The notes under the pieces are model-generated. The model had not been told where the DNA came from, ran no database searches, and saw only the letters and a list, made by a program, of their open reading frames with translations. Position numbers and translations under genes: made by a program. DNA of 50,049 bases from the IMG/VR virus record IMGVR_UViG_3300045912_000109, positions 1 to 50,049 of that record. The stretch is one strand, 5' to 3'. Below are positions 3,605-18,085 of this stretch, one piece after another (position 1 is the first letter of the stretch; each line of letters starts with the position of its first letter). The DNA is from a virus (taxonomy: Duplodnaviria; Caudoviricetes).

Positions 3605-4623
3605 GCAAAACAACCAAAGTCACTGGCCTCTTCGTTAAGAGAGGAGCAAAAGAAGAAATTGCAAAGCGTTCGGAGTATGCCGACTGGAAAGCCGGGAAGC
3701 TCACGAAAGAACTCAAAGCGCAATTCACAAAAACCCAAGTGTCGCAACTCTTGGCGATGGTGGAGCGCGATGAAGCCCTCGACGAAGAGAACCCTGATGA
3801 GTTCTTCAAAGCCTACGAGAGCATTAAAGCTGACTTGGCTCGTGCGGCAGAGCACTTTGAAGCCGAAGCTCTGGCAGAAGCGGAGGCGAAAGCCAAGGCC
3901 GAGGCCGAAAAGCAGGCGAAGAAGGGCAAAGAGTTGGCCCTTGTTGAGTCCGTCAAAGAAATCCAATTCGGAGAGGCGTATGCCAAGTTCACGAAGAAGT
4001 TTGATCTTGGCGAAAACATGAACCAGTGTGTTCCAAGGGGCAAAGTCACCGAGGAAGATTTGGTGGGTGCGTTGGCCTTGGGCTTTGGTCTGGAGAACAT
4101 GAGCCAGTGGGTCATTGGAGACATCGTTTGCGCTCTTGAGAACATGGGTTACGAGAACGTGGTTATCGCAGTCTGCGAACGCTTCAAGAAGGCGTATCCT
4201 ACTGTGTCCGGCTACGCTCGTGTCAGCCGCCATGTTCCCGTTGAGAAGCGGGATTCTTCTATCCCGTTCACGGTCTACCGGGAAATTGCCAATGCCCGGT
4301 TCAGCGAGAGCGATGACAAGAACCTGCAGACCATGCACAAACTCATTGACCGTGCTGTCAGCGAGGGCTGGGGGGCAGGCGATGCTCGCTCGCATGTTGA
4401 GGCCGAGCGCGGGGTGAAGAAAGACGACAAAAAGCCTGGATTGAGCTTGTTTGTCGTGAGCCTCGATAACCCGGTGACTTCGTATTTTACTTCGGAAGTT
4501 CCGAAATACAGCGAAAGCACTCTGATCGTTGACCTCAAAGCCAAGAAGTTCTTGGAAAAGAAGGGCAACAAAACTGAGTGGTCTGAGTTCTTCTCTGACG
4601 AGTCTGAGAAATCCTCGTCCTGA
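3601..4623 (+). CDS. Putative DNA-binding protein with LmbU-like domain
   Basis: QWVIGD...YPTVSGYARVSRHVPVEKRDSSIPFTVYREIA...AVSEGW resembles the LmbU-type pattern; N-terminal coiled coil. Confidence 0.55.
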   Translation: MSKTTKVTGLFVKRGAKEEIAKRSEYADWKAGKLTKELKAQFTKTQVSQLLAMVERDEALDEENPDEFFKAYESIKADLARAAEHFEAEALAEAEAKAKAEAEKQAKKGKELALVESVKEIQFGEAYAKFTKKFDLGENMNQCVPRGKVTEEDLVGALALGFGLENMSQWVIGDIVCALENMGYENVVIAVCERFKKAYPTVSGYARVSRHVPVEKRDSSIPFTVYREIANARFSESDDKNLQTMHKLIDRAVSEGWGAGDARSHVEAERGVKKDDKKPGLSLFVVSLDNPVTSYFTSEVPKYSESTLIVDLKAKKFLEKKGNKTEWSEFFSDESEKSSS

Positions 4624-4637
4624 CGGATTGGGCCAAC

Positions 4638-4675
4638 AAAAAACCCACCCCGCAATTAAGCAGGGTGGGTTTTTC
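4638..4675. terminator. Bidirectional intrinsic terminator
   Basis: AAAAAACCCACCC...GGGTGGGTTTTT between convergent genes. Confidence 0.85.
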
Positions 4676-4682
4676 TGTTTGG

Positions 4683-6329
4683 TTATTGTTCGGTCGTGAC
4701 GGGGGAGACGGTGATTGTAGGATCGACGTTTCCGTCCATCAGCAAATCGATTCTCTTGAGTTTTTCATCAAGAGCAGCGCAGATAGCCTCTTCAATTCCA
4801 ACTCCCGCCGCATAGACGATATACTGGAACGAGGGAGACTTTCCTCCTTGCCGATGAACTCTTCCCAATACCTGCTTGAGGTCCATAGCGGACTCACAAG
4901 GGGAGATAAGGGAGTGGCGAGGATGATTGCCGTTGAGGTCTTGAAGGTTGATGCCTTCTTTACACGCTTGGGTAATACCAACGATGCAGCGGATGTCGTC
5001 CCGCTGAAAGGCGTCGATGAAACCTCGGCGTTCCTCTGGCTTTTGTGAGCCAACGATGAACCCGCATTTCCCTATTTTCTTCGTAATCGTATCGACCACG
5101 AATTGCAGGGACTCACGAAAGTTCATTGCGATGAACACGGAGTTGCCTTCTTCGATGAGATCAAGCGCAATATCCGCGATGCCGGGAGCTTTGTGAAGCT
5201 CGATGGCGCGGCGCGTCTTGATTCTCTCCGCAAGTATTGCTCCCGCACGGTCTGCGGCAGGGATTGACTCGTAAATCTCGTTGACTCTCTGTTCGAGTTC
5301 TTCGTATTCCGAGGCAATCTTTTTGCCGTTCTCCATGTCGAATGCCTTTGCGTGAATAGTGGTCTCTGGAAACGCATCCCCCAAGTCCTGAACGCGAAGG
5401 CGCGTTCCATACTCGGGGAATATGTGACTGTGAATCCGCTTTAGTGCGGACTGCGATCCGGAGAAAAACAGCCCGAACTTACCCTCTTTGACTCCGTGAG
5501 CTTTGAGGAACTGGAAGTATGTTCGCCCTCCTCTGTGGAGATTGCACGCTCTTCCAATCTCTGCGAAGTTCATGGGAGTCTCCGCTATCGTAGCCGATAG
5601 TCCCATAAAGGGAACGTGCTGGTCGATAGCAGCCCTAATGAGCAGGCTGTTCAGGGTTCCCATCGTTTTTGCTCGATGGATTTCATCGAAGATGACGATG
5701 GTGTTTTCTGGAATGTGCCACTTGAAACCGCGAACAGCCTTTGAGCGAGGATTTGCCTTCTCCTCGGTCTGCTGGCCGAACTCGGTTTTACCGAGCTTCA
5801 TCCATTCCCACCCATAGACGCCGACGACATCGACACCGACGGCGTTAGCCGCCCGATGCCAATCTGTGCAAACAGATTTAGGGCAGACGACGAGAACCTC
5901 TTTACCAAGCTCCCGTGCGATGAACAGAGAGATGTAAGTCTTTCCTACTCCGGTTGAGTGACCGAGGATATGGAAGTTGTGTTTCTGCATTGAGCGAACG
6001 CCGTATTGAACAGAAGTGATTTGATACTCAAGAACCATGTCTGGATACTTGAGTGGAACCAACTCGTGCTCGATGGACTTCACTTCTTCTTTGCGGGTTT
6101 CGGTGAAGACCCCGGCGGTCGATGACCAGTGATCGCATTGCCACTGGCCTTTATACTTTGAAACACGGACTCCGATTTCACGAAGTGCCTCTTTGTTTTC
6201 GCGGTAAAACTTCCAGAAATCCTCAGAGAGATCGAAGGATTTGCGAATCCATCTGACTCCTCCAGAAGTGTTCACTTGCATGGCTTGTCCGAAGACAACG
6301 ATTTCTTCCAACTGTTGTAGTAGTGTCAT
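4683..6329 (-). CDS. Superfamily 2 (SNF2-like) helicase/ATPase
   Basis: Walker A STGVGKT, VVCPKS, DEIH, LSAT, EGINL, QVLGRVHRQG. Confidence 0.9.
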   Translation of the reverse strand: MTLLQQLEEIVVFGQAMQVNTSGGVRWIRKSFDLSEDFWKFYRENKEALREIGVRVSKYKGQWQCDHWSSTAGVFTETRKEEVKSIEHELVPLKYPDMVLEYQITSVQYGVRSMQKHNFHILGHSTGVGKTYISLFIARELGKEVLVVCPKSVCTDWHRAANAVGVDVVGVYGWEWMKLGKTEFGQQTEEKANPRSKAVRGFKWHIPENTIVIFDEIHRAKTMGTLNSLLIRAAIDQHVPFMGLSATIAETPMNFAEIGRACNLHRGGRTYFQFLKAHGVKEGKFGLFFSGSQSALKRIHSHIFPEYGTRLRVQDLGDAFPETTIHAKAFDMENGKKIASEYEELEQRVNEIYESIPAADRAGAILAERIKTRRAIELHKAPGIADIALDLIEEGNSVFIAMNFRESLQFVVDTITKKIGKCGFIVGSQKPEERRGFIDAFQRDDIRCIVGITQACKEGINLQDLNGNHPRHSLISPCESAMDLKQVLGRVHRQGGKSPSFQYIVYAAGVGIEEAICAALDEKLKRIDLLMDGNVDPTITVSPVTTEQ

Positions 6330-6383
6330 GTTTGGTTTTTGATTTACGCAAGCGGAATTGCTTGCGTTCTGCTGATAGAACAG

Positions 6384-6434
6384 CAGACTTCTTCCCCCCA
6401 CTATCGTTTCCGATAGCGAGGGGAAGCGTGTCTG
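6384..6434. repeat. Intergenic ~50-bp hairpin unit, copy 1
   Basis: CAGAC..CTTCCCC..CTATCG-TTTC-CGATAG..GGGGAAG..GTGTCTG. Confidence 0.85.
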
Positions 6435-6437
6435 ATG

Positions 6438-7193
6438 TTACGACTGGAGCACTGTTGGAACAGAGGTAAGATGCTGGAGAGCTTCCGCATCTTTGACTTC
6501 TTTCTTGTGCCATTCGATAATCGCACGGGCGTCATCCAGAAGGCCGGATTTTTCGTGGTCCCCGTAAAATCCCCACACAGATGAGTCTCTTACCTCTTCG
6601 CCTGTTGGGGAAATTATTGAGACGATGCCATAGACATCGCCCCAAGCCCAACTGCAATAGAGTTCGTATGCGCTTTTGCAGGCTTCTTCTCCACCGCCAT
6701 CTCGCAAGCCAACTTCTTTGGCCCACTGCGGGGTTGCGAACGCCATGACCAAAGCGTAGTCTCCTTGGCAATGACCATTGTAAGTTCCATAATAACATGG
6801 AACATTAGCGATTTTGCAAAGCCATTTTACCATATCGAAGTAATCCTCTGCGTTGCTGTATCTTGTTGGCTTTGGAGCCTGTTCGCTACACAGACTACCA
6901 AAGGCGTCCCTTACTGATTCGCTGTATCGGAAACGATAGTCAGCGAACTCCTTAAGGGAGCAATTAAGATTTTTGATGAGATTGACACGTTTGCCACGTG
7001 CGAACTGCTCATCAGGAATCATTCCGACAAGATCCCAGATGTCCGGGACATCACCGTAAGTGATAAAACTCCGGTCACGGTAATTAAAAACCATAAGCGG
7101 AGGATTGCAGTCCCAATCCTCGAAAGGATTGGCTGGATAATCATCTAGGGCAACGACTACTTTGTAGCCGTCAATTTCGATTGTTTCTTTCAT
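6438..7193 (-). CDS. Hypothetical phage protein (putative early gene)
   Basis: Long ORF with DDYPANPFEDWD, WAWGDVYG and SVWGFYG motifs; A/C-rich leader before MKETIE. Confidence 0.8.
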   Translation of the reverse strand: MKETIEIDGYKVVVALDDYPANPFEDWDCNPPLMVFNYRDRSFITYGDVPDIWDLVGMIPDEQFARGKRVNLIKNLNCSLKEFADYRFRYSESVRDAFGSLCSEQAPKPTRYSNAEDYFDMVKWLCKIANVPCYYGTYNGHCQGDYALVMAFATPQWAKEVGLRDGGGEEACKSAYELYCSWAWGDVYGIVSIISPTGEEVRDSSVWGFYGDHEKSGLLDDARAIIEWHKKEVKDAEALQHLTSVPTVLQS

Positions 7194-7243
7194 GTGTTTG
7201 GTTTTGTTCACTCGCCCTGAATGAGCGAGCGTCTGAGTTTTTA

Positions 7244-7300
7244 AGTCAGACTGCCGCCCCCCACTATCGTAACCGATAGTGAGAAGCGGTGTGTCTGACT
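7244..7300. repeat. Intergenic hairpin unit, copy 2
   Basis: AGTCAGAC-TGCCGC..CACTATCG-TAAC-CGATAGTG..GCGGT-GT-GTCTGACT. Confidence 0.85.
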
Positions 7301-7748
7301 ACTCGTTGGCTGCCTTTTGCCACGCTTCTTCTTCGGTAGAGAAGGGGCCGATTGCTTTTTCATCTTCCAAGCATCCGGGCAAGCAGTGCGAGTAATACCA
7401 GCCCGTCAGCTTTTCGATGACCTTATCTTTGCCGAGGTAATAGACCTCGACGTTGGCAAGTTTATCGACGAGTTCTTCGTATTCTTCTTTGGCCGATGGG
7501 TCGAAGATGTCGTCCCCAAGACAAAGATAATCTTCATCTTTGACGAGACCATCCTCGTAATCGACAATTCCGGTTCGATACCATGTTGGGTCCATCTCGC
7601 GGAGAACGCTTGATGGAGTCATGTGCTCGAAAGGGCCGCCGACTTCTTTGAATGAGTAGGTTTCATCCAAAGAGTCGCAAAACAATTCTTCCACGTTAAC
7701 GGGAGAATGATTCGAGCGAATAATTTCTTCGATGATTTTTTCTTTCAT
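7299..7748 (-). CDS. Acidic hypothetical protein
   Basis: 149 aa, very D/E-rich; PSSVLREMDP and GWYY...PGCL...GPFSTEEEA motifs. Confidence 0.8.
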   Translation of the reverse strand: MKEKIIEEIIRSNHSPVNVEELFCDSLDETYSFKEVGGPFEHMTPSSVLREMDPTWYRTGIVDYEDGLVKDEDYLCLGDDIFDPSAKEEYEELVDKLANVEVYYLGKDKVIEKLTGWYYSHCLPGCLEDEKAIGPFSTEEEAWQKAANE

Positions 7749-7801
7749 TGTGTGTATTTCTATTAAGGTTGGTTTTTGGTTACGGAGTTGCTTAACGCAA
7801 T

Positions 7802-7852
7802 CCGACTACCGCTCCCCACTATCGTAACCGATAGTGAGAAGCGGTGTGTCGA
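7802..7852. repeat. Intergenic hairpin unit, copy 3
   Basis: Shares 37 identical bp (CCCCACTATCGTAACCGATAGTGAGAAGCGGTGTGTC) with copy 2. Confidence 0.85.
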
Positions 7853-7853
7853 A

Positions 7854-8309
7854 TCACTCTGGTTTTGCTCCTATCTCGATTGCTTTTTTAATGAGTTCAG
7901 GCTCATGGATTGGATGAATCCAAGAAGCCCTTTCGCCGAGAGCGTATCTGACAAAGCCGCCGCGCTGCATGAACTCACGTTCCCTTTCGGGAAATTGAAA
8001 GGCTAGGTTCTTCCAAGCCTTCCAGTTTAGCTTTTCGGCAATCAATGGGAAGATTTCCGAAAAGAAGAACTTGGAGTTTGTTTCCAGCCTTTTGGCCATG
8101 CGGGAGCGCATTATTGCGCGTCCTCGTTTCGGGTCTTTCCCGAAACTCACTTGCCCCATGCGGTAAATATCGGGTGCTTTTGGCAGCCCGATATTAAGCT
8201 CGGGAACAAGGAAATGCTCGGGGTCATCTTCTCTTTCTTCCCAAACTTTGAAGTCAAAGTTGGCCCCATTGAACAGAGCCATAGCTTGTTTTTTGTATTG
8301 TTTTGTCAT
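7854..8309 (-). CDS. Hypothetical protein
   Basis: 151-aa ORF bounded by hairpin units, with an A/C-rich leader. Confidence 0.75.
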   Translation of the reverse strand: MTKQYKKQAMALFNGANFDFKVWEEREDDPEHFLVPELNIGLPKAPDIYRMGQVSFGKDPKRGRAIMRSRMAKRLETNSKFFFSEIFPLIAEKLNWKAWKNLAFQFPEREREFMQRGGFVRYALGERASWIHPIHEPELIKKAIEIGAKPE

Positions 8310-8347
8310 AATTTTGGTTTGTTGGTTTTCTGAATGGTTAATTCCAA

Positions 8348-8400
8348 TCAGACTTCCGCCCTCTACTATCGTTTCCGACAGTAAAGGGCGGCGTGTCTAA
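8348..8400. repeat. Intergenic hairpin unit, copy 4
   Basis: TCAGAC-TTCCGCCCT-CTACTATCG-TTTC-CGACAGTA-AAGGGCGG-CGTGTCTAA. Confidence 0.8.
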
Positions 8401-8524
8401 CGGGTTTCGGCGATGATGTATGCCGCGGTTATTAGTAATGTGATTGCGAAAATAGCCAGAGCCAGCATAACTGGCTCTGTGCTTTTCCGCCGATTGCGGG
8501 GGGCTTGAGGATTGCGGAATGCGC

Positions 8525-9382
8525 TCACAACCAGCCCTCCTGAGCGGCGAACCGCTCGACTTCCTTGCGCTCGAATTTGTGGCATCCGATTGTCACGCTA
8601 TCGGAACCGATAGCGCAAAGCTCGAATGGTCCGACATTGTGAGTTTCGACATCACGAACCCACTCTTTGCCTTCATCCCACATGCGGTTGATAAACATGA
8701 AGGAACGCTTGGCGTCCTCATATTTGACTTCCGCTCCATGGGAAGTCTGAACGACAATCGAATTGTGGCGATGAATGCGCCGAAGCAGAGGCGGAATTTT
8801 CATAAGGTATCTGTTCGGGTGAAAGCTATCATCAGAAAAGAATCTCTTAACGCTTTTCTCGATGCTTTCTTTTTCCTTTGATTTCTTTTTCTCAGCCATG
8901 CTTCGCCGTTTTTCGGCCAGCTTTTGGAGCACGGATCGTGTTTCCTCATTGGCTAGAGGATTCTCCAGCCCGTAGAAGGCGCAAAGCTCTTCAATCTCTC
9001 GTGAGATGGCATGAGCTTTGAAGATTTGACGCGCACTCGTTCGAGAACGCTTTACCGCTTCGACAGATTCGTTAAAATCTGCGACACGGGCGCGGAGAAT
9101 CTCTTGCGGGGAAGGATTCATTCGCAGTTCTGGAGCATAGAACACTGGCACCCCAAAAGGAATAGAGCGTCTGGCAAAATTGATATGCTTTGCCGTAGTT
9201 GGCCCCCACTTATCCTTTGTGAAGAGAGCGGCGCGGTTCCCACGCTCGTTCATAACGAAACGAGCGATCGGAAAATGCCGACCATAGGAGTAGATCGTAG
9301 TTCCTTCAAAGAAGAAGTTGCTCCCTTTGCCATAATTTTTATTTTGTGATGCCCACAAATGGGCCACTTGCATGTTATTCAT
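8525..9382 (-). CDS. Hypothetical phage protein (putative early gene)
   Basis: VAHLWA...TIYSYGRHFPIA...TTAKH motifs. Confidence 0.8.
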   Translation of the reverse strand: MNNMQVAHLWASQNKNYGKGSNFFFEGTTIYSYGRHFPIARFVMNERGNRAALFTKDKWGPTTAKHINFARRSIPFGVPVFYAPELRMNPSPQEILRARVADFNESVEAVKRSRTSARQIFKAHAISREIEELCAFYGLENPLANEETRSVLQKLAEKRRSMAEKKKSKEKESIEKSVKRFFSDDSFHPNRYLMKIPPLLRRIHRHNSIVVQTSHGAEVKYEDAKRSFMFINRMWDEGKEWVRDVETHNVGPFELCAIGSDSVTIGCHKFERKEVERFAAQEGWL

Positions 9383-9611
9383 TTTTTTGGTTCTTTCTTG
9401 GTTTGTTGGTTTTTGACGGCTCTGCATTTACCACGGGCTTGCCACCGTTCCACTATCGTAACCGATAGTGAAGCTGCATTACCCGAGCCACGAGCGAAAC
9501 GAATCTCGCAAGCGGCCCGGAAAACCAAACCATAACCAAACCATAAACTGACTTTTCAAAGAACAACGTGGTAAGCATGAAAAGAATAGGACTTTTCTCG
9601 ACCACAGAAAA

Positions 9612-9640
9612 AGTGTAGCAAAAATGCTACTTTATGTCAA
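9612..9640 (-). promoter_or_regulatory. Leftward promoter with operator GTAGCA-AAAA-TGCTAC (9615-9630)
   Basis: Minus strand TTGACA-17 nt-TACACT, heading the 9.4-4.7 kb leftward gene run. Confidence 0.75.
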
Positions 9641-9697
9641 GCGGTTTGAAGCACTTTTCTCTTGTGTCCCGCTATCGTATCCGATAGTATTTTCATC

Positions 9698-10651
9698 ATG
9701 CCTGAGAAAGTGAAGCGATGGGATTGGCCGTTGGCCTTTAGTTTGTATTGCGCCGGGATGGGGCCGAAAGAGATCGCCAATCTTCCCGAGTTTCGCGGGC
9801 TGTCGGAGAAAAGCCTTGCTAACGCCATTGTAAAGCAGGGATGGGCGAAGGCCCGAGAGAAGCACCAGATGGAGCGAGCGGTTTATCTCACGAGCAATCT
9901 GCAAGAGGCCCGGAAGGTGGCGATAGAAAAGCATTACAAGTTCCTGCTGCAAGAGGTAGAGTTAGAGCGAAAGGTGATAGAGCAGCGGGTGAAGACCGGG
10001 AAGACGAATGAGCAGACCGCCCGGTTGGAGATATTGAAGCGATATGTTGAACTTGCAGAGAAGGCTTTAGGGATAGAGGGGGAGAAAACGGGCGATCCAA
10101 AACGTGATGGGGATCGCTGGCTGATTGCCATACAAGTCAATGGGGAATCTGTTCCCGTAAAAACGGCGGAAGAACAAAGCCCTACAAGCGGTTTTAATCC
10201 CTTATCCGCTATCGTGACCCTACCGACGATTAAAAACGCCGCACAGGGCCACGTAGAGCCGGGAAACGGCATGTCTGAAACACATCACAAAGCCGACAAT
10301 GAACAAAACCCCGAAAAAACGCCGGACTCCACCCACCAACCCGATGATTTTTTAATAAACCCACCCGCCGAAAACAAACAATATCGAAACAATAACCACC
10401 CCACACAAAAAGCCAGCCGACTCCCAGCAATCCCACCATTAAACGCAACCCCGGAAGAAATACTCTTCACCCACCGAGGAGAAGAACCACCCGATGAACA
10501 ACCTGCCGATGAACAACCGCCCGATGAAGAACTATCGGAACCGATAGTAAAACCAACACCACGAAAAACAAACTTCCCCATTCTCCGCCAAAGACCAAAA
10601 CCAAAAGGAAAATCATGGGGCAGACCCAAAACCCAAAACCCCAAAAAATAA
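9698..10651 (+). CDS. HTH protein, candidate terminase small subunit, with low-complexity C-terminal tail
   Basis: AFSLYCAGMGPKEIA...LSEKSL...KQGW HTH followed by helical oligomerisation-like segment; P/K/N/Q-rich tail with EEPPD/EQPAD/EQPPD repeats. Confidence 0.5.
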   Translation: MPEKVKRWDWPLAFSLYCAGMGPKEIANLPEFRGLSEKSLANAIVKQGWAKAREKHQMERAVYLTSNLQEARKVAIEKHYKFLLQEVELERKVIEQRVKTGKTNEQTARLEILKRYVELAEKALGIEGEKTGDPKRDGDRWLIAIQVNGESVPVKTAEEQSPTSGFNPLSAIVTLPTIKNAAQGHVEPGNGMSETHHKADNEQNPEKTPDSTHQPDDFLINPPAENKQYRNNNHPTQKASRLPAIPPLNATPEEILFTHRGEEPPDEQPADEQPPDEELSEPIVKPTPRKTNFPILRQRPKPKGKSWGRPKTQNPKK

Positions 10652-10658
10652 AGACACA

Positions 10659-10699
10659 AAAAAAGACCCGGCAGCTTACCGCCACCGGGCCTCTTTTGC
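10659..10699. terminator. Bidirectional terminator
   Basis: A-run, CCCGG...CCGGG stem, CTCTTTT between convergent genes. Confidence 0.6.
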
Positions 10700-10706
10700 T
10701 TCTGGT

Positions 10707-11537
10707 TCACTCCCCCTTTGCCTTGCCGGCTTTCTCAATCATGCGCTTTTGATTGCGCACGATTTCCAGTTCCTTCTCTTCCGCTTCACTCACGAAACGG
10801 AAACTGCCGCGCACCGTCAACGCCTTAGAAGCGCGGAAAGCATTCCGCAGCATGGCGGACACGTCCGACAGCGTGACCTTGCGGTCTGCCACCTGAGAGG
10901 CGACAAACTCGCAAGCCAACCGGCAGCTTTCCGCCGGAGACAGCTTGGCTTTTTCGTCCGACTTGCCGCCCTTGCCGCCATCGCTCTCTTTTTTCGGAGA
11001 GCGTGACTTGCTTTCAATAAAGCCGTCCGCTTCCGCTTTAGAGCGTAGCTGCTCCAACGCTCCGCTCCCCTTGTCAGAGTTAAGAGCATCAGTCAGCAAC
11101 GGGCGCGCTGCCTTGGTTTCAAGTAACGTTTTAAGGTTGCCCGATCCTAGACGGCTTCTTATCGCTTCGATGTGTCGCACGGGAAAACCGTTTTCCCGTA
11201 AGGCAATCGCTATCTTTCTTTCTTGGCCCAACTGGTGCGCCCGGCCTAAAGAGAAAGAAACGCTCACCCTCTCCTTAAAAGAGGGCCACGACTCATCAGG
11301 AACCAATGATGCCAAAATGGCGCAGTTGTCTTTGCCAGATTGGCACAATCGATCAAAATGATCGATGAGCGTGCAGAATTCGCCCTCTCCGCTAAGACGG
11401 GCTTTTTCAATGCGGCCCGTATCGTCAAACGATATATCTTTTAATATATCGTTAACACTCCGCGAATCAAGTGCGACTTCAGCTTTAGCGTTATTCTTGC
11501 GCTTTGCAAGTGTCTTAGTGTTTGTGTTTGTGTTCAT
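10707..11537 (-). CDS. Hypothetical basic protein
   Basis: 276-aa ORF; leftward TTGACA...TATCCT promoter near 11703-11730. Confidence 0.7.
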   Translation of the reverse strand: MNTNTNTKTLAKRKNNAKAEVALDSRSVNDILKDISFDDTGRIEKARLSGEGEFCTLIDHFDRLCQSGKDNCAILASLVPDESWPSFKERVSVSFSLGRAHQLGQERKIAIALRENGFPVRHIEAIRSRLGSGNLKTLLETKAARPLLTDALNSDKGSGALEQLRSKAEADGFIESKSRSPKKESDGGKGGKSDEKAKLSPAESCRLACEFVASQVADRKVTLSDVSAMLRNAFRASKALTVRGSFRFVSEAEEKELEIVRNQKRMIEKAGKAKGE

Positions 11538-11835
11538 TATTTTTCCTTTCTTGTTGCGTTTATCTTATCCCTGCCGCTATCGGAAACGACAGCGAACAAG
11601 CAAGAATAAGATTGCGCAACAAAAGGAAAGTGAACCTTTTTGTTTTGGGAAAGATCTGATGTTGGATTCTTGGTGGATAGAACCGAACCAGCCAACAGTG
11701 AGAGGATAGCAGAAACGTGCCTTGTGTCAATAGGTTTTTGCCCGGATTTCTGATAAACAAAAACCCGCGCTGGATTGCTCCAACGCGGGTCTGGCCGTCC
11801 CCGTCTATGTCTCCAATGCCTTTCGGCAAAAAACG

Positions 11836-12114
11836 TTAACGCCGTTTAATGTGTGCCGCTTTGCGGGCGGCGTCAGCGGTTTCTCCTATGGCCGAAAGCC
11901 AAGGATATTTTCCTTGGCAGTAGGCTACGACGCTGAAACGTAGGTAGTAGTAACTCCCATTGGGCAGCCGTGTTGTCCATCCAATAAGATTCCACAAGTT
12001 GCCCAGCCGGGGGGCGGTGAAAATGTCCTGCTCAGGATCGGGCAAGACTCCTAATTCTTTTAAGATTTTCATGGGTGTTACAGGCCTTTCACCCGTTCGC
12101 CCCGGAAGGTTCAC
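11836..12114 (-). CDS. Hypothetical protein
   Basis: ORF between a leftward TTGACA (~12204-12209) and a hairpin terminator (~11760-11790); start uncertain. Confidence 0.45.
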   Translation of the reverse strand: MNLPGRTGERPVTPMKILKELGVLPDPEQDIFTAPRLGNLWNLIGWTTRLPNGSYYYLRFSVVAYCQGKYPWLSAIGETADAARKAAHIKRR

Positions 12115-12259
12115 TGATCCCTACACGCGCCGGAGTTCCGCGCTTCGGGAACCTAGGCCAACCACAGCCTAGGTAGTTTCATTCTCGCCTATCCTGCGGA
12201 AATGTCAACAAAATACATGCCCGAACATATCAATTTTCCACTATCGGAGACGATAGCAA

Positions 12260-12776
12260 CGCAAGCCACCAGCACCAGCACCAAGGGAACAACGTGCCAG
12301 CACTAGGCCAGCGGGAACCAGCACCAAGATCAGAAACAGGCAAGCGGATCACCACCAAGGGAACCAACAACAAGGAATCCCTTTTTTCCAGCAGACACAC
12401 CAACCCACCACACCACCCATACCCCCCGGAGCCGGGAGGCTGCCAACGCTATACCCCCACCCAACGAAAAAAACCAACGAAAAAAACCCGCGAAAAAACC
12501 AGAGAAAAAACCCTTCCAAAACCACCCCCAAAGACTACTTCAAAAACCACCCTAAAAACCACCCCTAGAGACCACTCCTAAAGACCGCTCAGCAAGGAAA
12601 GCCTTACGAACCTCTGCTAGAGCTACTCTGCGGTTTATCTTTACGCGGGTGGGGGGAGTATCTTCATGCAGATACAGTAGGCGGTAGAATCTTTTTTGGT
12701 GGTGGTGGGGTGGTATTTTGTGTGGTGTTGTGTTTTGTGTGTGTGGGGTGGGGTTGTTTTGGTGTTGTGGTTATGG
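12260..12776. other. Non-coding low-complexity region with strand-skew switch (A/C-rich, then G/T-rich)
   Basis: AAAACCACCC-type runs to ~12590, then GGTGGTGGGG/TGTGTTTTG runs from ~12690. Confidence 0.8.
12631..12659 (-). repeat. Degenerate type I-E-like CRISPR repeat
   Basis: Minus strand ACTCCCCCCACCCGCGTAAAGATAAACCG: intact ATAAACCG handle, stem broken by GGG>AAA. Confidence 0.55.
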
Positions 12777-12867
12777 CGGCTCATCCCCACGATGGTGGGG
12801 AACGCGGCAGGCTCCGGGCTGCCAGTCCATGACCTGCGCGGTCCATCCCCACGATGGTGGGGAGAGC
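12777..12867 (-). CRISPR. Cas-less type I-E-like mini-array (2 repeats, 1 spacer)
   Basis: Minus strand GCTCTCCCCACCATCGTGGGGATGGACCG, 33-nt spacer CGCAGGTCATGGACTGGCAGCCCGGAGCCTGCC, GCGTTCCCCACCATCGTGGGGATGAGCCG. 29-nt repeats with CCCCAC/GTGGGG stem and 8-nt handle, as in I-E repeats. Confidence 0.88.
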
Positions 12868-12875
12868 GCAATGGC

Positions 12876-12904
12876 ACTTTCGCTGAAATTTTTGTTTTCG
12901 TCAA
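12876..12904 (-). promoter_or_regulatory. Promoter for the mini-array
   Basis: Minus strand TTGACG-17 nt-GAAAGT, predicted start 1-3 nt before the first repeat; A-rich upstream tract. Confidence 0.6.
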
Positions 12905-12982
12905 GAGATTTTTTTGATTTTTTTTCACTATCGTTTCCGATAGTTGGGTTGTGTGGGGTTTTGAAAAGCGGGGTGGGTGGTG

Positions 12983-13180
12983 TTATTGGGTTAGCTTTTT
13001 TCGGGCTTCTTTGAGGATATTGACACGCCTCTCGGCTGCCCGGTAGTTCTTGATTGCGCGTTGCAGTTTTTTTCGGGCTTTGCATTTCTTCCATTGGGCG
13101 CGGCGTATGAGGGAATCCAATCCCAACAGCAGATAAATGTCCGGCGTTTGTTTCTGTTGTGGGGATGAGGGGGTGTTCAT
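12983..13180 (-). CDS. Small basic hypothetical protein
   Basis: ATG overlaps the MTase stop (ATGA); MNTPSSPQQK... Confidence 0.5.
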   Translation of the reverse strand: MNTPSSPQQKQTPDIYLLLGLDSLIRRAQWKKCKARKKLQRAIKNYRAAERRVNILKEARKKLTQ

Positions 13181-13860
13181 TCGTTTGGGAAACAAAAACT
13201 TTGCTGCGCTGTTTCCCGATCAATCCGCTCGCAAGCTGCTTTGAAGTAGTCTTTGTCGATTTCGCAGGCGGTTAGGTGGAGTCGTGCATAGTGGCAGGCG
13301 ATAGCGATGGAGCCGCTGCCCATGTGGGTGTCGAGGATCGTCTGACCCGGCTTGGCGTAGTTTGCCAGCAGCCATGAGTAGAGCTTAACTGGCTTTTGCG
13401 TTGGGTGGATGCGATTTTCCCCCATAGGACGACATGCGTATTTTTTGACAGGGCTTTTGAAACTCGTCCACGCAAGTTCCGCTGCTGCTAAAGAAAACTT
13501 GTGCGGCTGCTGTTTGTCCCATATCAGCCAGCACGGGGAGTTTAGCGGCATCATTTCGATGAAGTGGTTTGCACCCCACACGATTTGATTTTTTGAAACG
13601 CGCTGGAGTTCGGTAAAGTATTTTTGATCTGGTGGCTTAGAGTCCCAATCTTTTTTTGCCTGCTTCTGTCTTACAGGATTTGCCGCCATTCCGATCCCAT
13701 AAGGCGGATCAATAATCGCCAGATCGAAGTGTTTGTCAGGATATTCTGCCATGAGTTCCATGCAGTCCATACAACGGATGTCCAGAAATTCCCGGACAAA
13801 TCGATTGACCGGATGCTTGCCAGCGTCCACGTTGGCTATTGATTGCGTTTCTTGCTTCAT
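13177..13860 (-). CDS. DNA N6-adenine/N4-cytosine methyltransferase (beta class)
   Basis: DLAIIDPPY, HPTQKP, LDTHMGSGS, CEID. Confidence 0.92.
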   Translation of the reverse strand: MKQETQSIANVDAGKHPVNRFVREFLDIRCMDCMELMAEYPDKHFDLAIIDPPYGIGMAANPVRQKQAKKDWDSKPPDQKYFTELQRVSKNQIVWGANHFIEMMPLNSPCWLIWDKQQPHKFSLAAAELAWTSFKSPVKKYACRPMGENRIHPTQKPVKLYSWLLANYAKPGQTILDTHMGSGSIAIACHYARLHLTACEIDKDYFKAACERIDRETAQQSFCFPNE

Positions 13861-13899
13861 TGTTTGTCCTCCGGCTGTGAGTCCCGTTTGGCGTTCAAA
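13791..13899 (+). repeat. Degenerate attC-like site A
   Basis: CCCGGAC-AAATC-GATTGACC...GGC-GTTCAAA; interior shares ~35 bp with site C. Confidence 0.5.
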
Positions 13900-13929
13900 A
13901 TTCCACCCATTCAAGCATAGCGTCTGTGT

Positions 13930-14307
13930 TCATTGTGCTGGAACCTCGAAAACGTGGTGTCCCCCTCGCCGTGAGCTATGCCAATAGCACGGCCAGAAAC
14001 AGGGATTTTGTCGAAGGGCGTTAATGATCTCCTCGTTGCCGGACCATCCCCCCGTGGAAATGCTATATCGGACAACTGGCCTCTTTAGGTCGTTCTCGGT
14101 TTCTTCTACTCTCCACCCCCAATCGGAGTATTCCCACGCGCTTTTGATAATATCGAACACTTCGTGCGGGTGCATGACGTTGTCCAGTGGCATGTTTTTT
14201 AACCATGAAAGAAAATCCTCCGACGGATAACCTTCTTCATCCAGAAGCTCCCCGTTGAAGGGCTCGAATGGTTGTTGGTCTTTTTGCAAATCCCGTCCGT
14301 TTTTCAT
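13930..14307 (-). CDS. Hypothetical phage protein
   Basis: LDEEGYPS...STGGWSGNEEIINAL...RGGHH; coupled by ATGA overlap. Confidence 0.8.
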   Translation of the reverse strand: MKNGRDLQKDQQPFEPFNGELLDEEGYPSEDFLSWLKNMPLDNVMHPHEVFDIIKSAWEYSDWGWRVEETENDLKRPVVRYSISTGGWSGNEEIINALRQNPCFWPCYWHSSRRGGHHVFEVPAQ

Positions 14308-15098
14308 AAAGGCAACACTTCTTGCGCGAGACGCCGAACGGCTATCTCAAAATACTTTTGTTCCTTTTCAATACCGATGTATCCACGTCCTTCCAGCTTG
14401 GCTGCAAGGCATGTCGTCCCGCTTCCCATGCACGGGTCAAGCACCGTATCTCCGGGGTTTGTGTAGGTTCGCACCATGTAGCGCATAAGTGCGAGCGGCT
14501 TCTGCGTTGGGTGCAACCCGACCTCACAGTTGAACTTCTGCCACGATGACGGAACACGCATTTCTGGGAGTTTCTGGTGGTCGCGCCCTTCAAACTCGCG
14601 GTAGTTGTCCGACTGCGAGCGGAACGCTACTCCGTATTTCACACGGTCAGCCCCGCCTCCCGTCCTTTCCTGCATTTGTTTGTTGTATGTCCACTTCTTT
14701 TCTGCAAACACCAGCACAGATTCATGCTCCTTCATTGGCTCGCGCACCGTGTTTGCAAAGTTGCTACCACGATTTTTGATCCATATCCATTCATGGCGGA
14801 AACAAGGCAGATTGCTCATAACCATACGGGATGCGAAAGGTTGGCTCGCAGTCGTTACCACTGCACCACGGCACACGCGCATTGCTTCCACCCACCACGC
14901 TTCCACAGGAAACGGTGTGTCCCACTTGTTGCTTGTCATCCCATACGGCAAATCCGTGATGATTGCATCCACCGATTTGTCCGGCAGGGTTTTCATTACG
15001 TCTAGGCAATCGCCAAGAATCAAATCACTTTTTGCGCGATCCACCAAATGGCTGCCCGCCGTCACGCTGGCTGCTGGATTAGTTTTTTGGTCCATCAT
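14304..15098 (-). CDS. DNA N6-adenine/N4-cytosine methyltransferase (beta class)
   Basis: GDCLDVM, ITDLPY, HPTQKP, LDPCMGSGTT, GIE. Confidence 0.92.
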   Translation of the reverse strand: MMDQKTNPAASVTAGSHLVDRAKSDLILGDCLDVMKTLPDKSVDAIITDLPYGMTSNKWDTPFPVEAWWVEAMRVCRGAVVTTASQPFASRMVMSNLPCFRHEWIWIKNRGSNFANTVREPMKEHESVLVFAEKKWTYNKQMQERTGGGADRVKYGVAFRSQSDNYREFEGRDHQKLPEMRVPSSWQKFNCEVGLHPTQKPLALMRYMVRTYTNPGDTVLDPCMGSGTTCLAAKLEGRGYIGIEKEQKYFEIAVRRLAQEVLPL

Positions 15099-15134
15099 TT
15101 TTTCTCAGAGTTTTGGTGATCTTGATCGTTAGCG
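15038..15134 (+). repeat. attC-like site B (R'' box lost)
   Basis: L'' GATCCACC (8 nt) ... L' GGTGATC (7 nt), 6 nt, R' GTTAGCG. Confidence 0.65.
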
Positions 15135-15839
15135 AAATAGGGTCGCAATAACATCAGCGTCTTCCGGTTTGCTTTCAATATCTCCAAGACTGACCGATTT
15201 TCCCCACACCGAAACGCTTATTCCATTCTCGGTGTTTTGTATCGAACAGAATCCAGCACTCGTCACTGGTTCATGGTATGATCCCGCCGCCGCCTTGTGC
15301 GTGATTGGGTCGTTAAAAATCATTGGGAAGTCCTCTCCGAATATGATGTATTTTGCTTGCATAGAAATTTTCTGTGTTGCAGAGCACGTTTCCGTAAGGG
15401 ACTGCTCCTCTTGAACGTTGGCTACCCCTAATCGCCGCCTAACCCTGAGCGGAGCTTGGTCTAGTTTAGCGAGAAAGTTTTCCGCCGCTCTTTCGATTGT
15501 TGAACCGTATCCGTATGGAATTTTTTGCGCCCACTGAAATCTACCTTGCGCTTCATGCTCTATAGTAAATGCCCATCGAAAATCCTCCCTGCCGCCGTTT
15601 CCGGTTCCTCGGCAGATATACGGTTTGCCGTATTCAGCCGCTTTTTGAACTGCTGATACTGCTAATTTACTTCGCTGGACAATTTGGCATATTTCCATCA
15701 ATTCGGATTCTAGGAGCCTCAACCCATGATTATTGTGCAAATACTCCCATAATTCGTATAAATACGAACTGCGAACAATGCGATCCACCGAATAGCTGCC
15801 CTCCGTCACGCTGGCTGCTGACTTCGTTTCTTGCTTCAT
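15129..15839 (-). CDS. Hypothetical protein, probably a fusion of two cassette ORFs
   Basis: Starts with shared leader MKQETKSAASVTEGS; internal linker ANVQEEQSLTETCSA precedes a second Met (MQAKYIIF). Confidence 0.65.
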   Translation of the reverse strand: MKQETKSAASVTEGSYSVDRIVRSSYLYELWEYLHNNHGLRLLESELMEICQIVQRSKLAVSAVQKAAEYGKPYICRGTGNGGREDFRWAFTIEHEAQGRFQWAQKIPYGYGSTIERAAENFLAKLDQAPLRVRRRLGVANVQEEQSLTETCSATQKISMQAKYIIFGEDFPMIFNDPITHKAAAGSYHEPVTSAGFCSIQNTENGISVSVWGKSVSLGDIESKPEDADVIATLFR

Positions 15840-15878
15840 TGTTTTTTCTCCGGCTGTTGATGATCACGGGCGTTCGGC
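15770..15878 (+). repeat. Complete attC-like site C (109 bp)
   Basis: R'' TGCGAAC, 5 nt, L'' GATCCACC, GAATAGC ... GCTGTT, L' GATGATC, 6 nt, R' GTTCGGC; extra unpaired bases fall on the L'' arm. Confidence 0.72.
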
Positions 15879-15880
15879 AT

Positions 15881-16090
15881 CTAGTCTGGAATTATGCCGT
15901 TCGCCAGACAGCTAGCCGTGTTTGCAGCGTGGTTCGCGGCGCGTTTAACTCGCTTGAGTTCCTCTTCGAGTCGAGCGATCTTTTCAAATGCGTTGATCAG
16001 TGCGCCTTTGATTTCGGCGTCTGTCAGAGGCCGATTCATGGTGTTGATTTCATAAAGGGCTTCTTTTGCTGTGCAGTATTGCAGGTTCAT
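15881..16090 (-). CDS. Small coiled-coil hypothetical protein
   Basis: 69-aa ORF whose stop lies 2 nt from R' of site C. Confidence 0.6.
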   Translation of the reverse strand: MNLQYCTAKEALYEINTMNRPLTDAEIKGALINAFEKIARLEEELKRVKRAANHAANTASCLANGIIPD

Positions 16091-16128
16091 AGGATGTTCC
16101 TTTCAATGATGCCAAATTGTTTGGCGTT

Positions 16129-16419
16129 TTATTGGCTGTTTTTTTGCCGCTCAATGGATTCGTTGTCGGAAGCATATCGCAGCCACCATTCCTGATAGCG
16201 GAATTTGGGTTTCCCGGTTTTGTCTTTGCCGACCTCTTCAAAGCCGGACACCATGATGCCGTCGGCCCCGATAAAATCGACTCGGGCTCTTTCGATTGTT
16301 GCCACAGCCACTTTCCCATCCTTGTCCATAGCAAGCGCAAAGCCGTCTCTGGACAATGAGAACCGGCCAATGCAGATTTTTTTCGGCTCAGGCTCCTGAG
16401 CATAGATTTCGTAGATCAT
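16129..16419 (-). CDS. Hypothetical protein
   Basis: 96-aa ORF, GIMVSGFEE...YQEWWL. Confidence 0.7.
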   Translation of the reverse strand: MIYEIYAQEPEPKKICIGRFSLSRDGFALAMDKDGKVAVATIERARVDFIGADGIMVSGFEEVGKDKTGKPKFRYQEWWLRYASDNESIERQKNSQ

Positions 16420-16477
16420 GTTAATTTCCTTTACTTGAGCCAGCGGTAAGAGTCTTGGTTGAGTTGATGTAGGCAGT

Positions 16478-16561
16478 TTTCATAACGGTAAAACTTCTTG
16501 CGCGAGACGCCGAACAGTTACCCGCTGGCACGTCGGATGCTGGATTAGGTTTTTTCTTCAT
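16478..16561 (-). pseudogene. Internally deleted methyltransferase cassette remnant
   Basis: Leader MKKKPNPASDVPAGN joined to the MTase tail VRRLAQEVLPL*; 16493-16515 is identical to 14317-14339. Confidence 0.7.
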
Positions 16562-16890
16562 TGTTTGTGTGTGTTTGTTGTTAGAGAATCAGGTATGGTC
16601 TTAATAGAAACCCCGGACGACTGCTTGAAGATTATCATTCGTCTTGCAGGAACTATCTTTCCATTCGGAATGCTCGGACTTCTGATAATTCGCTCTTCCA
16701 AAACTTTCGTGAAAAACGAACCTAAAGATGGGAGCGGAACGCAGAGACCAGCTTTCATATACTCAATGAGAACTTCGATGAACGCATCGCATATAATCTT
16801 AACGTCCGCTTTATTAAATCCAGAGACATGAGAAACATCATCAACGAACTCAGCGTATGTTGCTCTTCTCAAAATACACTTAGTTGCCAT
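16558..16890 (-). CDS. HU/IHF-like histone-like DNA-binding protein
   Basis: SGFNKADVKIICDAFIEVL...VPLPSLGSF...RIIRSP...VPARRMIIFKQS. Confidence 0.85.
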   Translation of the reverse strand: MATKCILRRATYAEFVDDVSHVSGFNKADVKIICDAFIEVLIEYMKAGLCVPLPSLGSFFTKVLEERIIRSPSIPNGKIVPARRMIIFKQSSGVSIKTIPDSLTTNTHKQ

Positions 16891-17101
16891 ATTTCCTCCT
16901 TAGTCTTGAATACTTCCCCGCCAAAATCATCATCAATGCAAGAACTATCGCAAACGATAGCGCAATCGGGCCGCAGGCCGCGCTCGTAAAAATGCCGGAC
17001 AAAGTTAGCTTCGCCCCGTGAAAGCAAATCGCGGCGCAGTATCGGAAGAAAAGCAATCCCCCGAACGACCATATCAAAACGAAAATCGTTAGCTCGTTCA
17101 T
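16880..17101 (-). CDS. Small membrane protein
   Basis: Two hydrophobic segments; ATGA overlap with the upstream gene. Confidence 0.55.
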   Translation of the reverse strand: MNELTIFVLIWSFGGLLFFRYCAAICFHGAKLTLSGIFTSAACGPIALSFAIVLALMMILAGKYSRLRRKYGN

Positions 17102-17463
17102 TTTGCGTCGGCTCCGTATATCAGCCACCCCTTTTCGCGGGAAATAGCTGGATTTGCGTGGATAAATTTGTGTCCCTCATCTGAAACTGCCATCCAAGTG
17201 CCAATATCAAGCATGTTTTTTCCAAGCCTTCCTTTCATGTGGTGAATCTGGCATGAAGGAAGGTGTGGATAGACAGCGCATCGTGGGTTCATCATCAAAA
17301 ATTTCTTTCTAAGTTCCGCATAAACTTCCTTAGTCCGAATCATTTTCTTCGAGACTTTGTTCATTGGTTTTTTTGCCTTTAGAGCGGCTGGCTTTTTGGG
17401 CTTTTTCTTGAGTTTTTCTATATACTCCTCGTATGTCGGTTTCTTGAATCCACTTTTCTTCAT
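17098..17463 (-). CDS. HNH-like endonuclease
   Basis: RCAVY...QIHHMKGR...WMAVSDEGHKFIH. Confidence 0.7.
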   Translation of the reverse strand: MKKSGFKKPTYEEYIEKLKKKPKKPAALKAKKPMNKVSKKMIRTKEVYAELRKKFLMMNPRCAVYPHLPSCQIHHMKGRLGKNMLDIGTWMAVSDEGHKFIHANPAISREKGWLIYGADAK

Positions 17464-18085
17464 CAGTTTCCTCCTGAGATGTCACGAAATCATAAATTGC
17501 TCTTAGGAAAGAGCTATGCCGCTTGTTGCGGATATTGAAAGTTTTTGCCGATGACTGTGCATCAAGTTTAGCAAGCGAGCTAATTATGTCAATCCAATGC
17601 AGCCTGTATTCCGATCCCTTAAAAGGAAGGAATGGTTGAGAACACTCAGAGAAAATCTGCTGAAACAATCTCAATGTGATGCTTTTCTGTTCAACCAAAA
17701 CCGCCAATACTTCATGCCACCTGTGGGCGACTTTCGTAAGTATCGTATCCGATAGAAAGGGATTTTCCGAAACAGAGTTCACGGTGATCCATACGGACTC
17801 AAACTCTCTGGCATTTGCACAGCGGAATTTGAACGGGAGGAATACGTGTGGCCCTAATTTGAATTTCGGATAAACCGAGATTCCGTAGAACCTGTTGTAG
17901 AACTCCAAAGCCGCCCTTTCTGTTTGTATGACAAGCGGATTTGCCGAGGTCACTTCAAACCCCGGAAAAGAAGAGTGGCGGGATGCCACCCTAATTAGCT
18001 CTTTTCCTATCTCTAGGCGATCTTTCTGGCTTGCCGTAATAGTATTTTTGGAGGTCTTTAAGACCTTGGATTGCTTCTTTCTCAT
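17330..18085 (-). CDS. Hypothetical protein
   Basis: 251-aa ORF in the leftward operon; both ends overlap neighbours, so limits are uncertain. Confidence 0.55.
   Translation of the reverse strand: MRKKQSKVLKTSKNTITASQKDRLEIGKELIRVASRHSSFPGFEVTSANPLVIQTERAALEFYNRFYGISVYPKFKLGPHVFLPFKFRCANAREFESVWITVNSVSENPFLSDTILTKVAHRWHEVLAVLVEQKSITLRLFQQIFSECSQPFLPFKGSEYRLHWIDIISSLAKLDAQSSAKTFNIRNKRHSSFLRAIYDFVTSQEETDEEKWIQETDIRGVYRKTQEKAQKASRSKGKKTNEQSLEENDSD

Follow-up and report, generated by a model that had tools for sequence, protein, structure and literature searches.

A probable decayed, integrase-less attC cluster in a phage genome, apparently reused as translation starts and homology patches

The DNA analyzed here (the window) is a full IMG/VR virus record of 50,049 bp (IMGVR_UViG_3300045912_000109; Caudoviricetes), which has direct terminal repeats and originates from a microbial-mat metagenome. 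Between 13.1 and 16.6 kb it carries four copies, sites A–D, of a module of ~110 nucleotides (nt), each of which forms the 5' end of a minus-strand gene. We consider it probable that this region is a decayed phage cluster of attC sites, the recombination sites of integron cassettes, that lacks an integrase and has been reused for translation starts, for leader peptides, and as patches of homology. An initial sequence-only reading of the window had described the repeats as inverted attC-like sites translated as shared leaders, and had proposed a phage system for cassette exchange that employs either a host integrase in trans or homologous recombination. Our analyses bear out the derivation from attC and find homologous recombination to be the best fit, but they argue against exchange by a working integrase, as the hairpins of the sites are gone and the recombinant joints seen between strains lie away from the R' box.

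Results

Every gene between 12.98 and 18.2 kb lies on the minus strand, and the four modules form the 5' ends of the genes for two orphan DNA methylases (MT1 and MT2), an unknown protein of 236 amino acids (aa; gene C), and a 46-aa relic (Table 1). A repeat search recovered the modules as two families: D1 (13801–13895, 15036–15130, and 15780–15874), with 60–79% identity to the reference copy, and D2 (15027–15100, 15771–15844, and 16493–16566), with 73–74% identity. BLAST with site C against the whole window returned three further places (E = 2.5e-19, 1.2e-13, and 3.1e-5), the second being site A (78% over 86 nt) and the third site D (72%). The repeats of C and D are spaced 722 nt apart, and sites C and B lie 744 nt apart.

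As had been read from the sequence, each site encloses an ATG, the sequences of the four leader peptides are MKQETQSIANVDAGKHPVNRFVR, M-MDQKTNPAASVTAGSHLVDRAKS, MKQETKSAASVTEGSYSVDRIVR, and MKKKPNPASDVPAGNCSASRARS, and the upstream genes stop at or near R'. The stop of the 69-aa open reading frame (ORF) is at 15881; that of gene C, at 15129, lies within GTTAGCG (15128–15134); that of the HU-like gene, at 16558, overlaps the ATG of D; and that of the 125-aa ORF, at 13930, is ~30 nt from A. The statement that no integrase is encoded also holds, since the tyrosine recombinase family PF00589 had no match in the complete 50-kb record, compared with matches in 14 of 14 controls. Conversely, two decayed copies that had been proposed at ~13121–13189 and ~16148–16168 found no support, neither matching a hidden Markov model (HMM) of the leader nor, at E<=10, the covariance model R1 described below.

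The origin of the module was traced with a degenerate pattern from the 3' half of the leader, used for a metagenome scan, and with a pattern from the resulting element, used for species-representative genomes. The metagenome scan yielded six contigs with a recurring imperfect palindrome of ~120 nt, in one orientation, at four copies per ~2-kb contig. The genome scan yielded ten contigs, of which nine are labelled Verrucomicrobiales, Spartobacteria, Chthoniobacter, Chthoniobacterales, or Terrimicrobiaceae and one Kiritimatiellia. An integron integrase (TIGR02249) scored above the curated cut-off in four of five such genomes (395–420 bits vs 265) and in none of 14 controls; in three genomes, integrase and element share a contig. 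In one Chthoniobacterales metagenome-assembled genome (G002; contig 23, here L115), the integrase gene lies on the minus strand at 1536–2468 and 23 sites extend in uniform orientation over 14.5 kb (3443–17952). Many of the cassette ORFs of this genome open with signal-peptide-like MK... sequences.

Host sites are spaced ~0.4–1.7 kb apart, which is cassette size. An alignment of 41 of them revealed (i) invariant AAC...GTT cores; (ii) an unpaired spacer; (iii) a 15-bp stem; and (iv) a variable apex. The host consensus has a bulged T (column 106) and a bulged G (column 112) on its 3' arm; two extrahelical bases on the R''/L'' arm of the attC bottom strand have a known role in integrons. Compensatory changes were found in 17 of 30 pairs, and 90% of the cells are paired, compared with 31–39% when the partner is slid. 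Judged by sequence and arrangement, these elements of the Chthoniobacterales (Verrucomicrobiota) are attC sites of sedentary chromosomal integrons. The modelled strand is identified as the attC bottom strand by the divergent integrases and by the host cassette ORFs, which run opposite to it in 35 of 38 cassettes; it corresponds to the coding strand of the phage. The genes of the array, all on the minus strand, are therefore inverted relative to ordinary cassettes, just as originally claimed.

Two models made from host sites were applied to the window. A host HMM, made solely from nine metagenome sites, matched site C at full length (E = 1.3e-12), site B at 15036–15079 (E = 5.1e-6), and site D at 16508–16549 (E = 1e-5). 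The covariance model R1, built from the 41 host sites only and thus lineage-specific, unlike IntegronFinder's general attC model, matched site C over model positions 1–125 (42 bits, E = 7.5e-11) and site B (19.8 bits, E = 7.8e-4), on the minus strand only; beyond these, all matches in the 50-kb window had E values of at least 0.56. With this lineage-specific model, the suggested covariance search of both strands recovered C and B, but not A and D; site A was matched by neither host model. The leader HMM scores A with E = 1.5e-27, a value to be read with the fact that this HMM was built from copies including A itself. Taken together, these comparisons indicate that the phage modules A–D are homologous to attC sites of Chthoniobacterales chromosomal integrons.

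On the plus strand, which is the attC top strand, the boxes of site C read R'' GCGAAC (15771–15776), L'' GCGATCCACC (15780–15789), L' TGATCAC (15861–15867), and R' GTTCGGC (15872–15878), confirming the box geometry that had been described for it. Its 3' arm agrees with the host consensus at 21 of 21 positions, matched by none of 100 shuffles, while its 5' arm agrees at 13 of 16, which alone is not above chance (29 of 100 shuffles). In the R1 alignment, standard pairs occupy 5 of 7 positions in R and 13 of 15 in the L-stem, and site C retains the extrahelical base in GGT[G]GATCGC; the T bulge is less clear. In place of the 5' half of the apex found in host sites, C has GGAG-N8-ATGAAGCAAGAAACG, and the remaining apex and the L''/R'' arm are read as codons, the site providing gene C with its start and 23 codons. 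When site C was compared by BLAST with 401 Chthoniobacterales genomes, 44 matched; among the 50 places listed, all but 3 cover the 3' arm only, and the ATG loop is absent from all of them.

Inverted repeats in the order R''-L''...L'-R' with AAC/GTT cores are found in site C only and not in B, D, or A. Beyond L'' (GGTGGATCGC), site B passes straight into the methylase, with no R''; site A has GTC in place of GTT; and site D has no L' because the HU-like gene overlaps its 5' arm. With the lineage-specific model, C and B nonetheless give at least two attC sites within a few kb and no integron integrase, the definition of a cluster of attC sites lacking integron integrases (CALIN). The array differs from canonical cassettes, in which a promoterless top-strand ORF is followed by attC, in that its genes use the bottom strand, with starts that lie within the site.

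A bottom-strand hairpin comparable to that of the host sites was not found in any of the four phage sites. A host attC folds with -39.8 kcal/mol (z -5.3), none of 200 shuffles being as good, whereas site C folds with -9.3 kcal/mol (z +1.8) and 194 of 200 shuffles fold as well. The energies of B (-12.3 kcal/mol), A (-12.6 kcal/mol), and D (-6.0 kcal/mol) are likewise no better than those of shuffles. With arms only, the host site reaches -14.9 kcal/mol, compared with -4.1 for C, -5.9 for B (L box only), -2.6 for A (in the wrong geometry), and 0 for D. The folding of the bottom strands, proposed as a check on the initial reading, thus went against functional attC sites: the stem is eroded, so that most phage copies are no longer credible integrase substrates.

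Run X1, represented by Logan contigs, is probably the source sample of the window: it holds 95% of the stretch and reproduces each of sites A–D with flanks without difference. In a second run, X3, a co-occurring strain that is 96–99% identical (contigs of 5.4 and 15 kb, depth 55–62) differs by three cassette-sized blocks, in agreement with the view that the modules punctuate a variable accessory array. In block (i), 14322–15031, the body of MT2, is skipped; the joint 14321->15032 has nine shared letters and sits in the 13-nt direct repeat ACTTyTTGCGCGA, which is present at the B junction and at the 3' end of MT2. In block (ii), 15788–16509 (722 nt) is skipped; the joint 15787->16510 has five shared letters and marks a crossover, in register, of the L'' part of C with that of D, whereby the 69- and 96-aa genes are lost and gene C comes to follow a leader that is a D/C hybrid. 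In block (iii), 13181–13938, comprising MT1 and site A, is exchanged for 53 letters (joint 13180->13939), while the 125-aa ORF region 13939–14181 is kept in the variant strain contig.

Integron integrases cut R' at G/TT (AA/C), and the initial reading had predicted that indels in relatives would have their breakpoints there. Instead, the three well-supported X3 joints fall within the L''/junction part of the repeats, at a distance of 45–85 nt from the crossover point in R', and none is at AA/C. At the joints 14321->15032 and 15787->16510, the indels between these close relatives are bounded by repeats. The X3 joints thus show that the present-day array turns over by homologous recombination. 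Relic D is the product expected from an event like (i), consisting of a leader, the last ~35 nt of a methylase, and the ATG of the next gene, and leader D appears to have been joined out of frame to the methylase 3' end. A back-joint 16542->15084 (depth 3.1) could reflect a circle or a duplication and is given little weight. Three further joints (13306->13734, 13413->13514, and 15371->16030) were set aside, as their sides of 21–26 letters are possible cross-matches from other methylases or strains. Just upstream of the ATG of D, about 500 record letters of an X3 contig are unaccounted for (16568 to 16578); they may be an extra inserted unit.

When DNA patterns based on the leaders were searched across IMG/VR, only L087 and L088 matched (13.5 kb; by our own reading they have scaffold-like and capsid-like genes). 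Apart from the cassette described here, blastp at E<1e-5 found no protein common to these contigs and the window. L087 and L088 carry three sites: one heads a 114-aa protein, one heads a 152-aa homologue of the N-domain of gene C, and the third, a half-size site (2628–2665 in L087), consists of the 5' arm only, AACGTCCGCGATAACC followed by GGAG, ahead of a GTG-started 81-aa ORF. A C5 cytosine methylase (949–1869) lies directly ahead of the first leader-bearing gene of L087.

The body of gene C is ~97% identical between the window and L087, from R'' (GTTCGC) to an AACG box at 15416–15419, where similarity collapses. Its leader has a different history: the leader in front of the L087 body is only 80% identical, and that of C is 88% identical to the other L087 leader, so that bodies and leaders have been re-paired. 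The end of the 97% block falls in GAACGTTGGC (15413–15422), at which L087 continues with an attC 5' arm. A further copy proposed for ~15379–15423 likewise found no statistical support, as no model matched it, but its box lies exactly where the homology to L087 ends at this arm.

This box also marks an internal boundary of gene C. Its N-domain (to ~15402) is common to contig L087, which shares residues 1–146 only, whereas its C-terminal 77-aa unit (15129–15362) has stand-alone homologues of 77–79 aa elsewhere, and residues ~150–236 have Atlas structure matches to viral proteins of 93–116 aa. Since the 77-aa unit occurs on its own and gene C reads through the AACG box, gene C looks like two units joined in frame, a fused cassette pair; it is probably such a fusion, or else one frame that yields two products. 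One stand-alone homologue of the 77-aa unit is 96% identical and resides on a 50.6-kb contig.

A more distant relative, G403 (L132–L135), is a 67,116-bp circular IMG/VR record with a 127-nt terminal repeat. It encodes distant homologues of window genes: the terminase-like protein (E = 3e-38), a 795-aa protein (E = 1e-27), the helicase, and both methylases. Its IMG/VR class, its terminal repeat, and this distant homology lead us to infer that it is a phage. R1 detected 25 sites in G403 (L132 2165–11482; L134 1602–3397 and 10844–13582), in uniform orientation and on the strand of its genes, and no integrase was found in this record. Among the seven sites that were folded, z ranges from -5.0 to -7.9 in four, which fold well, and from -0.5 to +0.8 in the three others, which do not. 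By longest ORF, cassette direction is evenly divided (10 vs 10), the top strand encoding a DUF1508 protein and the bottom strand two N6_N4 methylases.

In G403, several bottom-strand ORFs have their start in the loop of a site with retained arms (arms only, -11.7 and -15.5 kcal/mol); this phage group thus includes cases of a start codon inside an attC whose arms are intact. The ORF at L132 11377–11670 has a leader (...ETQSAS...GRDSVDRIVR) in the same frame as the window leaders; other G403 sites are read in other frames. G403 may represent an unusually large phage-borne attC cluster, relative to which the window shows a later, eroded state. Ten large G403 proteins gave no Pfam match, and of ten compared with PHROGs, only three received a name: helicase, primase, and exonuclease. 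An ORF at L132 3530–4066 is methylase-like by motif but had no Pfam match, and we make no claim for it.

Elsewhere, the window encodes a DnaB-like helicase, a replication initiator, and a protein with a weak terminase match. Rfam returned nothing relevant in the window, only two chance matches (E = 2.4 and 8.9), and a phage nucleotide library only weak methylase matches (six records at 60–80% identity). Neither promoter-like sites (3 vs 7.5 expected) nor terminators (10 vs 9.9 expected) were in excess. The two methylases of the array are likely anti-restriction genes. Ahead of the array, ~750 nt without a convincing gene (12230–12980) could be an origin or a regulatory region; this stretch has A/C-rich tandem repeats of 12–13 nt (12396–12586), a G/T-rich mirror (12705–12771), and two copies of a 31-nt hairpin unit, CCCCACGATGGTGGGG (12776–12868). 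At the far end, an open frame of >2,080 aa (43809–50048) runs off the record; as the record has terminal repeats, this frame may carry on at the record start.

Table 1. Features of the array and its borders (window coordinates)
Feature	Position	Strand	Description
MT1	13177–13860	-	N6/N4 DNA methyltransferase; attC-derived leader, residues 1–23; PF01555, E = 1.1e-16
Site A	13789–13903	-	Diverged copy; start (ATG 13860) and leader of MT1
125-aa ORF	13930–14307	-	Flanked by sites A and B; matched no Pfam or PHROG family
MT2 3' end and next-gene start	14301–14344	-	Direct repeat of the B junction (ACTTyTTGCGCGA); 89% identical to 16477–16520 in relic D
MT2	14304–15098	-	N6/N4 DNA methyltransferase; attC-derived leader; PF01555, E = 9.6e-31
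Site B	15020–15138	-	attC-derived module without R''; start of MT2 (ATG 15098)
Gene C	15129–15839	-	236 aa; no Pfam or PHROG family
R-box-like GAACGTTGGC	15413–15422		At the boundary between the two units of gene C; no model match of its own
Site C	15764–15882	-	Only full-length attC-like site: R', L', loop with GGAG-N8-ATG (ATG 15839), L'' with bulged G, R''
69-aa and 96-aa ORFs	15881–16419	-	15881–16090 and 16129–16419; between C and D; no family
46-aa relic	16421–16561	-	Leader D, apparently out of frame with methylase 3' end and start of following gene
Site D	16490–16592	-	Copy without L' arm; start of the 46-aa relic ORF (ATG 16561)
HU-like DNA-binding protein	16558–16890	-	Upstream border of the array; PF00216, E = 3.2e-9; phrog_379

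Discussion

We propose the following course of events. attC sites from Chthoniobacterales chromosomal integrons would have been captured by a host integron integrase, a step that the ancestry of the sites and G403 suggest and that is probably historical. In the phage, the attC bottom strand is the coding strand, the apical loop has been reshaped into an A-rich Shine-Dalgarno (SD) sequence and an ATG, and the L''/R'' arm is read as codons 8–23. As the loop carries SD and ATG and the arm is read as codons, each site may act as a portable 5' module, i.e., a 5' untranslated region, a start codon, and a short leader for whichever gene comes next. With the stem eroded, the repeats would now serve mainly as homology patches for deleting, inserting, and re-pairing gene bodies with other leaders.

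Certain observations would be expected if the sites were still working attC sites at which a host integron integrase, acting in trans, swaps units of a gene plus its attC, with the site doubling as a translation start. All of R', L', L'' with its bulged G, and R'' are preserved in site C, whose score against host attC is 42 bits; four of five candidate host genomes encode an integron integrase; the homology to L087 stops at an AACG box, and a fresh attC 5' arm is present there in L087; G403 has 25 sites, including well-folding ones and loop starts between intact arms; phage attC sites have been recombined by IntI1 experimentally (text of PMC9892861); and the low-depth back-joint could be an excised circle. 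Yet we consider such active exchange unlikely, as the bottom strands of A–D fold no better than shuffles, B has lost R'', D has lost L', and A is not recognized by the host model. The three supported joints, moreover, are displaced from the R' crossover and lie in stretches common to two repeats, as homologous recombination predicts, and the leader and body of gene C differ in history, although an integrase would move both together. For site C, and for it only, we allow a small chance that an integrase-driven system is still active in the phage.

The repeats may also be viewed from the side of the proteins. The shared leader of the internal proteins of T4 is a capsid-targeting signal, and the leaders described here might similarly be functional N-terminal tags, e.g., for capsid targeting or export, kept by selection, with the attC origin being incidental. 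Six proteins in two phages have a same-frame leader in which the motifs MKQET and V(D/N)R(I/F)VR recur, and that of the G403 ORF at L132 11377–11670 ends in DSVDRIVR. However, the peptide changes about as fast as the DNA: 9 of 23 leader residues differ between C and site 2 of L087, while the bodies are ~97% identical at the DNA level. Thus, the leader peptide seems unconstrained and a targeting function improbable, the more so as the B and D leaders diverge past residue 20 and other G403 sites are read in other frames. The leader-peptide search that had been proposed, run with residues 1–40 of gene C against 5.8 billion proteins, returned one match, the L087 protein, and no other; this result covers protein lengths of 129–413 aa. 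Even less probable, in our view, is ordinary paralogy, in which the 5' ends would be left over from a tandem methylase duplication and resemble attC by chance. Two of the four genes are indeed N6_N4 methylases, and relic D joins a leader to a methylase 3' end. But the leader lies outside the methylase profile, matches to phrog_67 starting at residue 27 of MT1 (E = 4.7e-44) and at residue 24 of MT2; 72 of 80 viral homologues of MT2 align only from residue 18 or later, and the leader HMM found no module in the 80 viral loci that encode them. Non-methylase proteins are also headed by the leader, and the match of site C to host attC over its full length, upstream arm included, contradicts chance resemblance.

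Several points weigh against the decayed, reused cluster that we favor. The right-hand end of the 97% block falls on the AACG box, as would be predicted for an integrase crossover. Sites A and D are tied to attC only via their likeness to C and B, plus the partial match of D to the host HMM. The Chthoniobacterales are presumptive hosts, assigned by attC similarity alone. Among the 401 Chthoniobacterales genomes, the N-domain of gene C was found in none, an empty result from a search run without a positive control, and the 77-aa unit in one, with a marginal E value of 9.5e-4; as both units are all but missing from the sampled hosts, nothing points directly to exchange with host arrays. For the strain comparison, the evidence is confined to Logan contigs of runs X1 and X3, both from one sample. 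Finally, use of the ATGs, and thus a role of the modules in translation initiation, is a prediction from ORF structure and methylase homology.

Integrons are now viewed as banks of anti-phage defence genes. Tentatively, and as a possibility that we would not call probable, phages of Verrucomicrobia (those of the window, L087, and G403) might use attC arrays that lack an integrase to bank counter-defence and accessory genes; the host integrase would service these arrays, which would contain 'bottom-strand' cassettes with SD and ATG in the loop. If so, a bottom-strand cassette would bring its own translation start and be expressed wherever it lands in a phage transcription unit, and the window would be the end state of this design and G403 its working state.

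The decayed cluster would connect a phage attC cluster with the chromosomal integron of a particular host lineage, phage-borne clusters having been reported only in 2023 (PMC9892861), and it offers a host prediction, Chthoniobacterales, for a phage group that is otherwise unplaceable. It would further illustrate a fate of attC in phage, in which the hairpin is lost, a ribosome-binding site and start are gained, and the sites become translated 5' modules and recombination hot spots around orphan methylases. This would be a concrete route from site-specific to homology-driven gene shuffling, and, as a natural series, the window and G403 make it possible to ask whether one attC can combine recombination with the initiation of translation.

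Phage attC clusters with methylase cassettes are already known. The text of Qi et al. (2023; PMC9892861) describes CALINs in phage genomes whose cassettes include N6_N4 DNA methylases, proposes a host integrase in trans, and reports that five of six tested phage sites were recombined by IntI1, with confirmed G|TT junctions. Like these CALINs, the window has attC sites and methylase cassettes without an integrase, and some of the sites in that text are likewise divergent or have several ORFs between them. Unlike the CALINs as they are described there, the window sites (i) are traceable to the chromosomal integron of one host lineage; (ii) have all genes on the bottom strand, a loop with SD and ATG, and a translated site; and (iii) have decayed hairpins and polymorphisms that are products of homologous recombination. 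The words 'start codon', 'opposite', and 'reverse' do not occur in the text of PMC9892861. Our searches of the literature on attC sites and CALINs in bacteriophages, and on attC start codons and inverted cassettes, turned up no account in which the loop of an attC provides the start of a bottom-strand phage gene, a negative that extends no further than these searches.

With sedentary chromosomal integrons, such as that of Vibrio and, here, the Chthoniobacterales arrays L115, L101, and L097, the modules share one sequence family. This family is marked by AAC/GTT cores, a spacer that stays unpaired, two bulged bases, and an apex that varies with compensatory changes, and its cassettes measure 0.4–1.7 kb; the adjoining integrase, stable hairpins, and mainly top-strand ORFs of the host arrays have no counterpart in the phage copies.

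A recombination site that carries a ribosome-binding site and a start codon for a cassette gene has a precedent in the ORF-11 leader of attI1. The starts known from class 1 integrons belong to the top strand and are located in attI or the upstream cassette, whereas those of the window lie in the gene's own attC, on the bottom strand, and are repeated on several genes. Gene C, apparently fused, resembles the fused cassettes of class 1 integrons, in which loss of attC joins neighboring cassette ORFs (text of PMC4670013).

In the way they work, the window repeats resemble the PeSL mobile regulatory cassettes of T4-type phages, without being members of that class, no promoter/terminator motif having been found. 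As presented in the texts of PMC2839356 and PMC4122927, PeSLs are regulatory repeats at gene boundaries in hyperplastic regions, between which recombination inserts, deletes, or replaces accessory genes, and the window repeats likewise bound indels of accessory genes. Whereas PeSLs, in those texts, are promoter/terminator stem-loops that are untranslated and without integron ancestry, the repeat described here is a translated former attC.

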